Assembly (NCBI GenBank): GCA_021810605.1
Contig: JAJZIL010000003.1
Location: forward strand, 214-64,213
From: a bacterium
Lineage (GTDB): Bacteria; Patescibacteriota; Dojkabacteria; JAKAPS01; JAJZLI01
DNA: 64,000 nucleotides
Reading direction: 5' to 3'
Positions 16,267-20,981 of the stretch are shown here, piece by piece (within the stretch, counting starts at the first letter, position 1; each line of letters begins with the position of its first letter). The notes beneath the pieces are model-generated. The model made no database searches. It was given only the letters and a program-made list of their open reading frames with translations, and was not told the DNA's origin. Made by a program: the position numbers and the translations under genes.

Positions 16267-18231
16267 TTAATTTTTATTTAATTCTTTGTATATAAAACTG
16301 AATATCAAAGTATTTTTTTCAATTTGAGAATCTATATCTAAATTCCCCATATGCCCAGTATTTTCTTCTATATAAAGATAAGTTTTACCTAAAGAATAAT
16401 CTTGCATTTTCTTTGCAAATTTAAGAGGTTGAGCTAATCCTACTCTTGTATCATTAGTTGCTCCAGTTATTAATATATCAGGATATTTAATTCCTTTTTT
16501 TATATTTTGATAAGGACTCCAATTTAAAATATATTTTAATTCTTCTTTATTATCTGGATCTCCATACTCGTCTATCAATAAACTCCCACTACCATATTTT
16601 TTATAAATTAAAAAATCAACAATGGGAACTTCTGCAATTACTGCTTTATATAGACTAGGTCTCATAACCATCGCTGTTGAGACAATGAATCCTCCATGAC
16701 TTGTACCATTTATAAATAATTGTTTATTATTAGTATATTTATTATCTATAAGATACTCAGAGATAGAAATAAAATCTTCTATTGGTTTTATTTTATTTTT
16801 TGCTCCTTTCGTCTGATAATACCAATCTCTTCCAAATTCTATTCCTCCTCTAATATTTGCTATTACGTAAATTCCTCCATTATTTATGAATGATAAAGTC
16901 TCAGGACGATAATATGGTAAACTACTAATTCCAAACCCTCCATATCCATATAAAAGTGTTGGAGATGGTTTATCCAATTTATTATTTTTGTTATAAACAA
17001 TTGTTAATGGAATTTTTGTACCATCCTTAGACTTTACTAATTTATATTCTAATTTATAATTTTCAGAGGAAAATTCTTTTTTTACCTTACTTTGATATAT
17101 TTTTTCTAATTTATCTTTATCAAAAATATATTTATATATTGTATGTGGAAAAGTAATAGACTGAAAATATATATATGCATCATTATTATCTTTATCTGGA
17201 TTTAAAAACGCTATACCTTTAATATCAAAATTAATATCTCTTATGAAATTACCTTCATAATCATAGATCTTTATAAAATGTGATACATCTTTCAAATAGA
17301 GACAATATATATAATCTTTAGTGAATATATAGTCATATAATAAATAGTGTTTCGGTTTAATAAGAACTTTGCCTTCTAAATCTTTTTCTATATCTTTCAT
17401 ATCAATTTTGATTATCTCTCCAAATTCATTTTTTTTATCAGTATAAATTAACAACTTATCATTAATTATGTCCACATACATATTATAGTTTTTATATCTG
17501 TGTACTTTTAATATTTTTCTAGATATATTATCTTTTATTATAAGAAAATTTCCTTTTTTATAATCATTATTTATAATTATAGAATATTTTGAATTATCAT
17601 ATAAAGACATTTCCACAAAGGGCTCATTATCAAATTCACTTTCATTATCATTTAAAAACTTTTTATCTTTAGATTGAGCATCTCCTATTTCGTGATAATA
17701 GATTTCATACTTATATGAACTATAATCTCTAATATCACCCTCTGTATATATTTTTTTGATATAATAAAATCCTTTATCTTTATCCCAACATAGAAATGCA
17801 TAAATATTATCTATGCTATCTTTTACTTTTTCTCCATTACTATTAATTAAATGATAATAATATATTTCCAATCCTTGTTTTTCAGTTAGAAATGCAACTA
17901 ATTCCCCCGATTCTGAGGGTTTATATGTATAGAGCTCTTCATCATTAAATAAATTAAAATCAATAATCATTTTGGGATTATTCTCTTTATATTGAGAATA
18001 TAATTTTGAATATCTATCTTTATACGAATACTCCCCCCAATATTTATACTTACCTATAACTAAAGGAGTTGTTCTCCAAGAAACAAGTAAAGCTCTACTA
18101 ATATCTTTTTTAATTAATTCATAGTTTTTATCTTTTAAATATAATGAAGTTTTTTTATTTTCAGCTCTATAAAAATCAATAACACTTTTATTATTAATTT
18201 TTTCTAGATATTTATATTTGTCTTTATACAT
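16267..18231 (-). CDS. S9 family prolyl oligopeptidase (beta-propeller plus alpha/beta hydrolase)
   Basis: C-terminal catalytic domain with nucleophile elbow GTSHGG (GxSxGG) and downstream Asp/His region; about 400-aa N-terminal propeller-like region; located in the TOMM cluster. Confidence 0.7.
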   Translation of the reverse strand: MYKDKYKYLEKINNKSVIDFYRAENKKTSLYLKDKNYELIKKDISRALLVSWRTTPLVIGKYKYWGEYSYKDRYSKLYSQYKENNPKMIIDFNLFNDEELYTYKPSESGELVAFLTEKQGLEIYYYHLINSNGEKVKDSIDNIYAFLCWDKDKGFYYIKKIYTEGDIRDYSSYKYEIYYHEIGDAQSKDKKFLNDNESEFDNEPFVEMSLYDNSKYSIIINNDYKKGNFLIIKDNISRKILKVHRYKNYNMYVDIINDKLLIYTDKKNEFGEIIKIDMKDIEKDLEGKVLIKPKHYLLYDYIFTKDYIYCLYLKDVSHFIKIYDYEGNFIRDINFDIKGIAFLNPDKDNNDAYIYFQSITFPHTIYKYIFDKDKLEKIYQSKVKKEFSSENYKLEYKLVKSKDGTKIPLTIVYNKNNKLDKPSPTLLYGYGGFGISSLPYYRPETLSFINNGGIYVIANIRGGIEFGRDWYYQTKGAKNKIKPIEDFISISEYLIDNKYTNNKQLFINGTSHGGFIVSTAMVMRPSLYKAVIAEVPIVDFLIYKKYGSGSLLIDEYGDPDNKEELKYILNWSPYQNIKKGIKYPDILITGATNDTRVGLAQPLKFAKKMQDYSLGKTYLYIEENTGHMGNLDIDSQIEKNTLIFSFIYKELNKN

Positions 18232-18247
18232 ATATTTTTATTATATA

Positions 18248-18994
18248 CTAAGATATAACTATCGGATACACTATTAACTCTTCATTATTATGGATATCTA
18301 AGATTCCTAACAGTTTTTTATTATCAAATAAACCGAGTGGCCTACATTTCAATCCTATTGATTCAGATAATAGATAAATATTCTGTCCTATATGTCCAGC
18401 CTCAATATGTGAAAATGTATATGCCCTTTCTCCATATTTTACGGAAGACCTATTTATAATCGATGTTATTATTATAACTCCACTACATTTTACAGAAAAA
18501 TCTTGTTTAAATACTGAATATACTTCTTTTTTGTTAATTTCCCACATATATTCTAATGCATTCAATTTAACATTGTAATGATATAGTCCTTTTTTTAAAG
18601 TCTCTGTCTTAAAGATTATAATATATAATTCTAATGGATATCTTGATCCTCCTGATGGATATGCTCTTCTTGAATCATATTTTATATCTTTTCCTACATT
18701 TATTATTGCAGAAGATAAAAATATATTAGATAATATATCTTTTGTTAAATTATGAATATGATCTTTTTTAATTTGATAACTTTTTCTTTTTAGTATTGTA
18801 TCTATAAGGGAAGATTCATTATTATTTAGTATACTTTTATCTAAATATAATTTAGGAAATCTAGGATAACTTTTAAAATATATTCTCTTCCATGATTCTG
18901 GCCACTTAGATACAGGAGTACCTTTTTTTTTAGGTTTTATACTTCTAATTTTTTTATTTAATTTAAAAAAATAAAATTTGTCTTTTATGCTCAT
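18248..18994 (-). CDS. SagB-type dehydrogenase (nitroreductase superfamily) of TOMM clusters
   Basis: YPSGGSRYPLELY resembles the conserved P-S-x-G-x-x-YP motif of SagB/McbC-type FMN dehydrogenases; 3-bp spacing to YcaO. Confidence 0.55.
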   Translation of the reverse strand: MSIKDKFYFFKLNKKIRSIKPKKKGTPVSKWPESWKRIYFKSYPRFPKLYLDKSILNNNESSLIDTILKRKSYQIKKDHIHNLTKDILSNIFLSSAIINVGKDIKYDSRRAYPSGGSRYPLELYIIIFKTETLKKGLYHYNVKLNALEYMWEINKKEVYSVFKQDFSVKCSGVIIITSIINRSSVKYGERAYTFSHIEAGHIGQNIYLLSESIGLKCRPLGLFDNKKLLGILDIHNNEELIVYPIVIS

Positions 18995-18996
18995 AA

Positions 18997-20408: not shown

Positions 20409-20570
20409 TTAACATCTATGCCCATTTCCACAAGAGCAATTATTACATTGACACCTATTTCCATCTCCACAAGTTGAAGAGGATACGGTATCTAATGATT
20501 CTTCTACTTCTATTAAAGCATCTTCTATATCCTCCATACTTAATTCTTTTTCAATCGTTAATATTTCCAT
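20409..20570 (-). CDS. TOMM-type precursor peptide, 53 aa with Cys/Ser-rich core
   Basis: Hand translation MEILTIEKELSMEDIEDALIEVEESLDTVSSSTCGDGNRCQCNNCSCGNGHRC*. Acidic leader followed by a Cys/Ser/Thr/Gly/Asn core; SD AAGGAAGTG 7 nt upstream; TAA stop at 20409-20411; operator palindrome upstream. Confidence 0.6.
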   Translation of the reverse strand: MEILTIEKELSMEDIEDALIEVEESLDTVSSSTCGDGNRCQCNNCSCGNGHRC

Positions 20571-20631
20571 AATATAATCACTTCCTTATTTCTTAATTAA
20601 ACTTATTATAATACTTATTAAAAAAATAACA

Positions 20632-20647
20632 TTGCCATGCATGGCAA
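20632..20647. promoter_or_regulatory. perfect 16-nt palindrome TTGCCATGCATGGCAA, putative operator upstream of the TOMM precursor
   Basis: About 62 bp upstream of the precursor ATG; same family as the copies at 13928, 14887 and 27383. Confidence 0.55.
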
Positions 20648-20981
20648 ATTCTATAGAAGACATTATTATAGTATTATCTCTATTATAATTATGAAGGTAT
20701 GTATAAGGAAAAAAGTTAAAACTAATAAAGACATAAACCCTTTAAAAGAAAGGATTTTAGCAATAAAAGAGGCAAATATAAAGGATATAAGGTTTGAAGA
20801 TAGTAATTTAGTAGAAGATTTATTTTTGAAAGGGAAGATGAAACCTAGATACAAAAGAGATATAACTAAATTCATATCCCTTATAAAAGCTTGTGAACTA
20901 CTAAATTTTCCTTTTAGAGAAAAATTTAATGATATTTTAATAGCAAATGAAGATGATATATCCAAAGGATACAATTTGTGA
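20637..20981 (+). CDS. hypothetical protein, divergent from the TOMM precursor promoter (real start probably at the internal Met near 20691)
   Basis: The ORF begins inside the palindrome; basic, soluble, with no recognised motif; overlapped by an antisense ORF considered spurious. Confidence 0.25.
   Translation: MHGKFYRRHYYSIISIIIMKVCIRKKVKTNKDINPLKERILAIKEANIKDIRFEDSNLVEDLFLKGKMKPRYKRDITKFISLIKACELLNFPFREKFNDILIANEDDISKGYNL

Follow-up and report, generated by a model that had tools for sequence, protein, structure and literature searches.

Leader recognition by azole-forming YcaO enzymes is thought to require a partner protein bearing a recognition element (RRE) for the precursors of peptides that are made on ribosomes and modified post-translationally (RiPPs). 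The question raised by the locus described here is how a YcaO enzyme operates when no such partner is encoded beside it. The locus lies in a stretch of 64,000 nucleotides (hereafter, the window) of contig JAJZIL010000003.1 from assembly GCA_021810605.1 and encodes a Cys-rich precursor peptide, a YcaO protein, a SagB-type flavin mononucleotide (FMN) dehydrogenase and a peptidase of family S9A. Taken together, the results make it likely that the four genes constitute a RiPP operon of the linear azol(in)e-containing peptide (LAP) or thiazole/oxazole-modified microcin (TOMM) type in a bacterium of the candidate phyla radiation (CPR), with the YcaO and SagB proteins apparently working without a docking protein.

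Organization of the operon

Examination of the locus confirmed a genuine four-gene operon in a member of the Patescibacteria (CPR). All four open reading frames (ORFs) which a first-pass annotation had proposed as YcaO, SagB-like, S9 and precursor genes were found in place on the minus strand. They comprise the gene for the precursor peptide (20409-20570, an ORF of 53 aa), the gene for the YcaO protein (18997-20277, 426 aa), the gene for the SagB-type FMN dehydrogenase, or B protein (18248-18994, 248 aa), and, as the last gene of the operon, that for a peptidase of the prolyl-oligopeptidase fold (16267-18231, 654 aa). The intergenic gaps are 131, 2 and 16 nt from the precursor gene to the YcaO, SagB and S9 genes in turn, the SagB gene starting 2 nt beyond the YcaO stop codon. 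The gene beyond the S9 gene is in convergent orientation, and the transcription unit is therefore taken to be the four-gene operon.

A Shine-Dalgarno-like AGGAAG read from the sequence (20581-20586, minus strand) lies 10 nt 5' of the precursor ATG. Further 5' of the precursor gene, on the same strand, a terminator-like hairpin, TTGCCATGCATGGCAA, is followed by a T-run (20632-20647) and probably closes the upstream transcription unit. It is the sole terminator-like site between 16000 and 21100, weak evidence given a chance expectation of 0.8. The window is very AT-rich, with a GC content of 21-30%, and a promoter scan was uninformative at 24% GC, yielding 52 sites versus 49.8 expected by chance. 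A stem-loop between the precursor and YcaO genes was considered as an attenuator and rejected, its folding energy of -20.5 kcal/mol (z = -1.07) not being significant.

An identical YcaO protein is encoded on 15 public contigs. The order precursor-YcaO-SagB is kept in all six of the places listed among these contigs, which come from NCBI, ENA, JGI and Logan assemblies; five of the six have the whole S9 gene, the sixth (L003) being cut within S9 by the contig end. The nearest homologues bearing a name belong to the Patescibacteria group. A survey in which one genome per species was scanned recovered 80 related loci, and 83 loci entered the neighbour clustering. The YcaO proteins of the relatives L087, L088 and L090 are 70%, 66% and 59% identical to that of the window. 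These three loci keep the order YcaO-SagB-S9 in unrelated neighbourhoods, and a comparison of all ORFs revealed that the YcaO, SagB, S9 and precursor genes are the only ones they have in common with the window. The same gene order was found in L098, and the order precursor-S9-YcaO-SagB in L093 and L099.

Properties of the YcaO protein

The YcaO assignment held under searches with profile hidden Markov models (HMMs). The Pfam YcaO model PF02624 matched residues 55-383 with 127.5 bits, covering profile positions 8-325 of 325, and TIGR03604 (SagD family) was the best NCBIfam model, although with a score below its cut-off; the thioamidation model reached only 89 bits. The ExxER and ExxERD motifs were invariant in 30 YcaO homologues. 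The AlphaFold model of the protein was of high confidence (predicted local distance difference test 92.4, predicted template modelling score 0.93). The best matches in the PDB were LynD, MusD and TruD, on whose YcaO domains the whole model superposed with template modelling (TM) scores of 0.75-0.80, and the same three proteins were the nearest solved sequences. Archaeal thioamidation YcaOs matched at TM 0.65-0.72. The fit leaves no extra domain, in agreement with the first-pass reading of a YcaO without a fused E1-like domain. That reading had also stressed the position of the YcaO motif near the N-terminus; the position is true but normal for any discrete D protein, and what distinguishes the locus is the missing gene for the C protein.

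The window protein ends in NQIPHFFL, which aligned with the C-terminal NPxPxPF of TruD and LynD, a tail that is important for catalysis. Among its homologues, conservation of the C-terminus extends to the final residue: partner-dependent relatives have PHPFP, most CPR members have PHPFL, and the clade of the window has PHFFL. The PHPFP or PHPFL terminus was found in more than 70 relatives, of which the PHFFL of the window is a variant. A proline-rich C-terminus is characteristic of azoline-forming YcaOs (PMC8442711). Based on model, fold and C-terminus, the protein is predicted to be a discrete D protein of the azoline-forming type, without a fused E1-like or RRE domain.

Absence of an E1-like partner

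The location of a possible partner was investigated with an HMM built from 16 SagC/E1-like proteins and applied to ORFs of at least 60 aa, in the 64 kb of the window and in flanks of ~10 kb for the relatives. No match was obtained in the window or in ~50 loci from CPR and DPANN genomes. In relatives outside the CPR the same model gave 137-441 bits, with E values of 1e-40 or better, for partners that were intact or fused, and weaker matches extended down to 24 bits; at E < 1e-5 it recovered partners in 26 loci, fused and weaker partner-like versions included. In Nitrospinaceae, Firmicutes, Myxococcota, Acidobacteriota and one Bathyarchaeota locus the YcaO gene is preceded by an ORF of ~340 aa, and matches to TIGR03603, TIGR03882 and ThiF identified these ORFs as SagC-family or TOMM leader-binding E1-like proteins. 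In every relative that contains a partner, the partner and YcaO genes are either fused or no more than ~1.5 kb apart, that of the partner lying mostly directly upstream and, in five loci (L040, L042, L076, L083 and L085), directly downstream. These results agree with the earlier statement that no E1-like or Ocin-ThiF partner is encoded nearby.

The N-termini of the YcaO and SagB proteins and six unannotated neighbours were also searched with Pfam at E values up to 10 for a cryptic RRE, a check that the first-pass annotation had proposed for the YcaO N-terminus; no PqqD or ThiF signal was found. No hidden fifth conserved gene was detected among the ORFs of at least 40 aa common to the window and L087, L088 and L090. 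In a neighbor-joining tree the YcaOs of loci lacking a C gene (hereafter C-less) fell in the CPR/DPANN part, apart from the partner-associated clade; the only partner-bearing locus inside that part was L023, from an archaeon, with an adjacent ThiF-like partner. As judged by these searches, the window YcaO appears to be without a docking partner within the available DNA.

The SagB-type dehydrogenase

The protein encoded after the YcaO protein scored 110.5 bits with TIGR03605, exceeding the cut-off of 78.4, and its sequence matches in the PDB included McbC and CyaGox. K201-Y202 of McbC aligned with VKY of the window protein, indicating that the catalytic Lys-Tyr motif is kept. The earlier identification of a SagB-like dehydrogenase is thus well founded. 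In ~70 of the 80 related loci the YcaO gene is immediately followed by one for a SagB homologue, and the two often overlap; such a homologue is present within 6 kb in 78 of the 83 clustered loci.

The precursor peptide

The precursor has an acidic leader of ~30 aa with the motif MEIL/METL..LSMEDIED, followed by a core of 23 aa, SSTCGDGNRCQCNNCSCGNGHRC, in which 6 Cys and 4 Ser/Thr residues are present, exactly the sequence, length and composition first reported. Cys accounts for 0.48% of the residues in the 47 long ORFs of the window, and the probability of at least 6 Cys in 23 residues is ~1e-9; among the 90 small ORFs of the window (40-100 aa), this is the only one with at least 6 Cys. It is annotated as a gene in public assemblies, and the strain variant L005 carries the substitution S30F. 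The homologous cores whose search had been suggested at the outset were sought in related genomes, and ten homologous precursors were found beside genes of the YcaO, SagB and S9 types. They share a conserved leader of ~20 aa with the consensus METL(x)L..(L/F)(S/T)h(E/D)D(L/I/V/M)xD; behind it come a linker that varies and a Cys-rich core that is hypervariable, with no conserved proline. Judged by its conservation with the enzymes in relatives, its public annotation and its Cys content, the precursor is a true gene and not a chance ORF. The combination of a conserved leader and hypervariable cores is the classic signature of RiPP precursors.

In the wider family a Cys-rich small ORF was found directly 5' of the YcaO gene in 26 of 50 C-less loci compared with 29 of 262 control gene starts. 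Many of these ORFs have a leader of the DAKEF type and a core rich in Cys and Pro.

The S9A peptidase

The last protein of the operon carries the N-terminal beta-propeller domain PF02897 (Peptidase_S9_N) and the alpha/beta-hydrolase domain PF00326 (Peptidase_S9). The motifs GTSHGG, NDTRV and GHMG aligned with the triad motifs of 2bkl and 3iuj, and the Ser-Asp-His triad is present in all members of the clade. The best sequence matches in the PDB were hydrolytic bacterial prolyl endopeptidases (E 1e-71), ranking above PCY1, OphP and GmPOPB (E 1e-48 to 1e-54). OpdB was the top NCBIfam model, at 151 bits versus a cut-off of 1313, with a PDB match at E 1e-49. Cleavage after the Arg residues of the core in the manner of OpdB was considered but not adopted, as the PDB ranking favours prolyl endopeptidases; the S1 pocket shows no clear likeness to either type.

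The clade consists of approximately ten clusters at 90% identity, with 45-79% identity inside and ~31% to the next proteins. The S9 proteins of L087, L088, L090 and L098 are 60-73% identical to that of the window and syntenic with it, and a metagenome scan with the alignment of the clade yielded only three distant prolyl oligopeptidases (POPs) at 27-28% identity. The S1 tryptophan, which we take to be Trp595 of pig POP, the residue stacked against the P1 proline, was missing from 11 of 11 clade members, having been deleted or exchanged for Leu, Ile or Phe; it is kept in 13 of 14 generic POP homologues. In the window protein the residue is Leu, the canonical GWxW..(D/E)YG reading SLLIDEYG. SNGG is changed to S(H/A/Y)GG in most clade members, Asn555 being replaced by His, Ala or Tyr, and HDDRV is changed to NDTRV in the clade. 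With this tryptophan gone from every clade member and no proline conserved among the precursors, post-proline specificity is unlikely. Thus, of the label S9 prolyl oligopeptidase used in the first-pass annotation, the fold and triad stand; the word prolyl, on this sequence evidence, is probably a misnomer.

In 21 related loci (16 C-less CPR relatives and five from Firmicutes) the slot after the SagB gene is occupied by an M16 zinc peptidase, which is the very next gene after SagB in 18 of 22 M16-containing loci. The peptidase slot after SagB is filled by non-homologous enzymes, S9 here and M16 elsewhere; the M16 genes of the relatives therefore indicate that the window S9 occupies the peptidase slot, in agreement with the position first assigned to it; the enzyme is proposed to be the leader peptidase.

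Members of the S9 clade were also encountered in other settings. In L097 (5848-9959) an S9 gene whose product is 71% identical to that of the window follows a graspetide precursor and an ATP-grasp ligase of 605 aa, with no YcaO. In L092 (7798-9947) the S9 gene follows a gene for a Pro-rich, two-Cys peptide of 60 aa with a METL leader, again with no YcaO, and in L091 the S9 clade member stands alone. Graspetide precursors in these genomes start with METL or METD and contain the motif (P/T)(L/I)(E/D)W(L/I)xD. Judging from these sequences, we think that the enzyme may be a RiPP leader peptidase shared between pathways.

Relationship to known systems

The operon resembles the McbBCD (microcin B17) and SagBCD (streptolysin S) systems in having a discrete D protein with a PxPxP-type tail, an FMN dehydrogenase with the Lys-Tyr motif and a core rich in Cys, Ser and Gly behind a leader. 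Unlike these systems, it has no C protein (E1-like plus RRE), it has an S9A peptidase instead of TldD/E or a CAAX protease, and its YcaO scores below the SagD cut-off. LynD, TruD and MusD, the best structural and sequence matches to the window YcaO with the C-terminal tail included, are proteins of ~775 aa in which the N-terminal half is a fused E1-like plus RRE module, whereas the window protein is a YcaO domain only.

Precedents for partner-less YcaO chemistry are provided by bottromycin and by the archaeal thioamidation YcaOs. The bottromycin system involves a follower peptide, a single thiazoline and a macroamidine, with no SagB dehydrogenase. Bottromycin YcaOs were not among the sequence or structure matches obtained for the window YcaO. 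A ribosomal peptide as substrate and no partner protein are features shared by the window locus, the bottromycin stand-alone YcaOs and the TOMMs whose D protein stands alone (PMC4603692), the last of which were flagged by Cox et al. in 2015 as poorly understood (PMC4603692).

The peptidase shares the S9A fold, the Ser-Asp-His triad and the location in a RiPP cluster with LanPB/FlaP of class III lanthipeptides and with PCY1, GmPOPB and OphP. It differs from them in the loss of the S1 tryptophan and the changes at Asn555 and HDDRV in its clade, and in substrates with no conserved proline. Proteases of the prolyl-oligopeptidase family have been associated with other RiPP classes (PMC7268733, PMC4979651).

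Clusters of the same composition are already on record. In the part of the study by Sharrar et al. (mBio 2020, PMC7298704) drawn on here, 110 LAP clusters are described bioinformatically from 93 CPR genomes, with YcaO, nitroreductase, peptidase and an adjacent Cys/Ser-rich precursor, 89 of them having the nitroreductase gene beside the YcaO gene. The window locus belongs with these clusters: a CPR genome, a YcaO gene beside a nitroreductase gene, a peptidase and a neighbouring precursor; as far as that part of the study goes, the present survey recovered the same CPR family, which is uncharacterized. The same part contains no discussion of the missing E1-like/RRE partner and does not name the peptidase family. 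The first-pass description of an atypical architecture consequently holds in comparison with textbook TOMMs but not as a novelty among CPR clusters, in so far as these are described there. In the literature searched, no later work was found that deals with CPR YcaO clusters or with the partner missing from them. Compared with its relatives, in which M16 peptidases and DAKEF-type leaders are common, the window has an S9A peptidase with a remodelled S1 pocket and a METL..EDLED leader. New here are the tested absence of the partner across a CPR/DPANN clade, the S9A variant with a remodelled pocket that replaces M16, the METL leader family, apparently shared with graspetides, and the RiPP-island context of the operon.

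Proposed pathway and alternatives

The results show which genes are present, with their catalytic motifs conserved, and they show that the operon is conserved, that the precursors have the leader/core pattern and that the flanks covered contain no partner gene. The pathway that follows goes further and is inferred in its chemistry, in its real independence of a partner, in what the peptidase does and where it cuts, and in the bioactivity and target of the product. The 53-aa precursor would be made first. The discrete YcaO protein would then, with ATP, cyclodehydrate the Cys and possibly the Ser/Thr residues of the core to azolines, which the translationally coupled SagB-type flavoprotein would oxidize to azoles. 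The S9A-fold peptidase with its remodelled proline pocket would remove or trim the acidic leader, and the end product would be a small thiazole-rich peptide. Recognition of the METL..LSxEDLED leader would in that case reside in the YcaO protein, the dehydrogenase or the complex of the two. A wider proposal, put forward tentatively and with more doubt than confidence, is that YcaO-SagB pairs of CPR and DPANN organisms may be self-sufficient two-enzyme azole synthetases without E1-like or RRE components, joined in this lineage by a non-proline-specific S9A enzyme as a leader peptidase shared by azole peptides and graspetides with related METL-type leaders. Such sharing of leaders would be comparable to that of the Nif11 and NHLP leaders across RiPP classes.

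Several points weigh against the pathway. The window YcaO scored 182.7 bits with TIGR03604, below the trusted cut-off of 219.25 and thus outside formal membership of the family, and a partner-dependent relative from Streptococcus scored 291 bits. No insertion or deletion of at least 4 alignment columns sets the YcaOs of 49 C-less loci apart from the C-dependent ones, and hence no substitute for the RRE was seen; with no clade-specific insertion in the C-less YcaOs, leader recognition is therefore left unexplained. Characterized discrete D proteins are not known to be more than weakly active without their C protein, and the genome could encode a partner at another place, the DNA covered being the 64 kb of the window and the ~10-kb flanks of the relatives. 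The junction of leader and core has no conserved residue in the ten precursors, such that the cleavage site cannot be named. Members of the S9 clade occur in loci without YcaO (L091, L092 and L097), and the peptidase is therefore not dedicated to the azole pathway. The argument for azole formation is one of homology alone. Finally, although all four genes of the operon are intact, neighbouring genes in the surrounding island are decayed, and the operon might conceivably have lost its function in this strain.

The alternative with the greatest claim, although an unlikely one, is that a canonical three-component TOMM synthetase operates with an E1-like/RRE partner, a C or F protein whose gene is located in another part of the genome. 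It is favoured by the domain layout shared between C-less and C-dependent YcaOs, with no compensating insertion, and by L023, which is nested in the C-less clade and keeps its partner, suggesting ancestral dependence on one. In addition, the partner of the streptamidine system escaped sequence searches and was recognized by fold alone (PMC8442711). Set against this are the ~50 CPR/DPANN loci and the window itself with no partner in the DNA searched, the proximity or fusion of the two genes in all relatives that have a partner, and the result that no cryptic conserved fifth ORF of at least 40 aa is shared by the window and L087, L088 and L090. CPR genomes are, moreover, small and poor in spare E1-like enzymes.

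Two further alternatives concern the chemistry. That the YcaO protein forms a thioamide or an amidine, or that the Cys-rich peptide is left unmodified and binds metal or forms disulfides, with no azole in either case, is improbable to a high degree. Both reactions are known for YcaOs, the partner-less archaeal thioamidation enzymes are good structural matches (TM 0.65-0.72), the CxC and CxxC spacings could bind metal, and one paper reads CPR YcaOs as thioamidation enzymes (PMC12153355). The latter reading is disfavoured because of the coupled SagB gene: a SagB-type azoline dehydrogenase with the Lys-Tyr motif, coupled to the YcaO in most related loci, is sensible only where azolines are made. 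The SagD model also scored twice the thioamidation model (182.7 versus 89 bits), no TfuA or sulfur-donor gene was present among the Pfam-annotated genes of the locus, the C-terminal PHxFL motif points to the azoline-forming type, and hypervariable cores behind a conserved leader argue for a RiPP and not a metallothionein. Least probable of all is that the S9A enzyme is a transpeptidase or macrocyclase like PCY1, GmPOPB and OphP, giving a head-to-tail cyclic azole peptide similar to the cyanobactins. S9A enzymes do serve as RiPP macrocyclases in plants and fungi (PMC4979651), the three cyclases are among the PDB matches of the window protein (E 1e-48 to 1e-54), and the remodelled S1 pocket indicates that it is not an ordinary post-proline endopeptidase. 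Yet the protein is nearer to hydrolytic bacterial prolyl endopeptidases than to any cyclase, the precursor ends with the final Cys of its core and has neither a follower nor a recognition sequence, and the C-termini of its homologues are not conserved. Furthermore, the same slot holds the M16 hydrolase in related clusters, and S9 clade members are found beside graspetide genes as well. An azole pathway run by the YcaO-SagB pair without a docking protein is the reading preferred here.

Genomic surroundings and the wider family

The operon lies in an island of ~15 kb (11.9-27.3 kb of the window) that holds three RiPP systems, with other genes and with pseudogenes lying among them. Upstream of the operon, on the minus strand, is an apparently intact graspetide cluster (23551-27319) comprising a precursor of 37 aa, METLNEVNPLEWIQDTEIQEITNGEETYTAYDDRDNI (27206-27319), a phosphoribosyltransferase (PRTase)-like protein of 235 aa (26446-27153), an ATP-grasp maturase (25374-26390) and an ABC exporter (23551-25350), all on that strand; the same set is carried by L092. 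Downstream of the operon a second ATP-grasp maturase of 606 aa is encoded at 11869-13689. The graspetide-type precursor gene upstream of it (13724-13864, minus strand) is interrupted by an in-frame TAA, its product reading METLKIDIITPIEWLTDNDI before the stop and EFDDSIVMWQTHSTHKQDADDTNDD after it. In the strain variant L005 (8017-8157) the same codon is one for Gln; the interruption in the window is a strain-level knockout of one RiPP substrate. Graspetide clusters of CPR bacteria have been described earlier (PMC8939145).

Signs of decay were found at other places in these surroundings. A broken gene on the minus strand at 21874-22843 is the remnant of an ABC-F-type protein (two ATPases, no membrane domain); the intact homologue of 536 aa in L092 matched it in three frames over residues 1-304 and then 511-531. 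Intact ABC-F copies are located one gene from the S9 and METL-peptide genes in L092 and ~6 kb away in L098; the gene may have been either a resistance factor against a product acting on the ribosome or a housekeeping gene. The NDK-like gene at 22906-23549 (minus strand) is split into ORFs of 53 and 161 aa, here and in all those of the strain copies L001-L006 that cover the region, and is a single ORF of 219 aa in L092 (5859-6518). A histidine-phosphatase gene (His_Phos_1) at 27600-28203 on the minus strand likewise appears to be split into ORFs of 45 and 141 aa.

Elsewhere in the window, at 30433-35345 (minus strand), a pair of large ORFs (955 and 682 aa) overlap; the first, with helicase-like motifs, may belong to a restriction-modification system. 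Six tRNA genes, for Gln, Gly, Phe, Val, Leu and Leu, are tightly clustered on the minus strand at 37698-38264, and four more tRNA genes are present in the window.

Among the relatives, other sub-clades differ in the third gene, with PRTase-beta-propeller fusions or with HPr-kinase-like and nucleotidyltransferase genes. The SagB gene of a CPR/DPANN sub-clade (L037, L038, L046, L054 and L068) is followed by a gene for a protein of ~550 aa in which an orotate-PRTase-like domain is fused to a PQQ/BamB-like beta-propeller. Five CPR YcaO-SagB loci (L035, L041, L051, L029 and L057) contain an HPr-kinase/ScmC-like P-loop gene together with an NTP_transf_5 nucleotidyltransferase gene, a pair that also occurs in some lasso-peptide clusters. 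In L090 an ORF of 115 aa (7212-7559) overlaps the start of the YcaO gene and has three (S/T)WDDI(W/C) repeats, no Pfam match and no counterpart in the window.

Significance

The operon and the ~50 C-less loci offer a compact four-gene system for asking whether a YcaO/dehydrogenase pair alone binds the leader and installs several azoles. If the pair were sufficient, it would provide a very small toolkit for peptide engineering. The S9A clade, in which the proline pocket has been lost, may be a class of RiPP peptidases with a new specificity. The occurrence of the RiPP island in an ultra-small and presumably host-dependent CPR bacterium is relevant to the interaction of episymbionts with their hosts or competitors.

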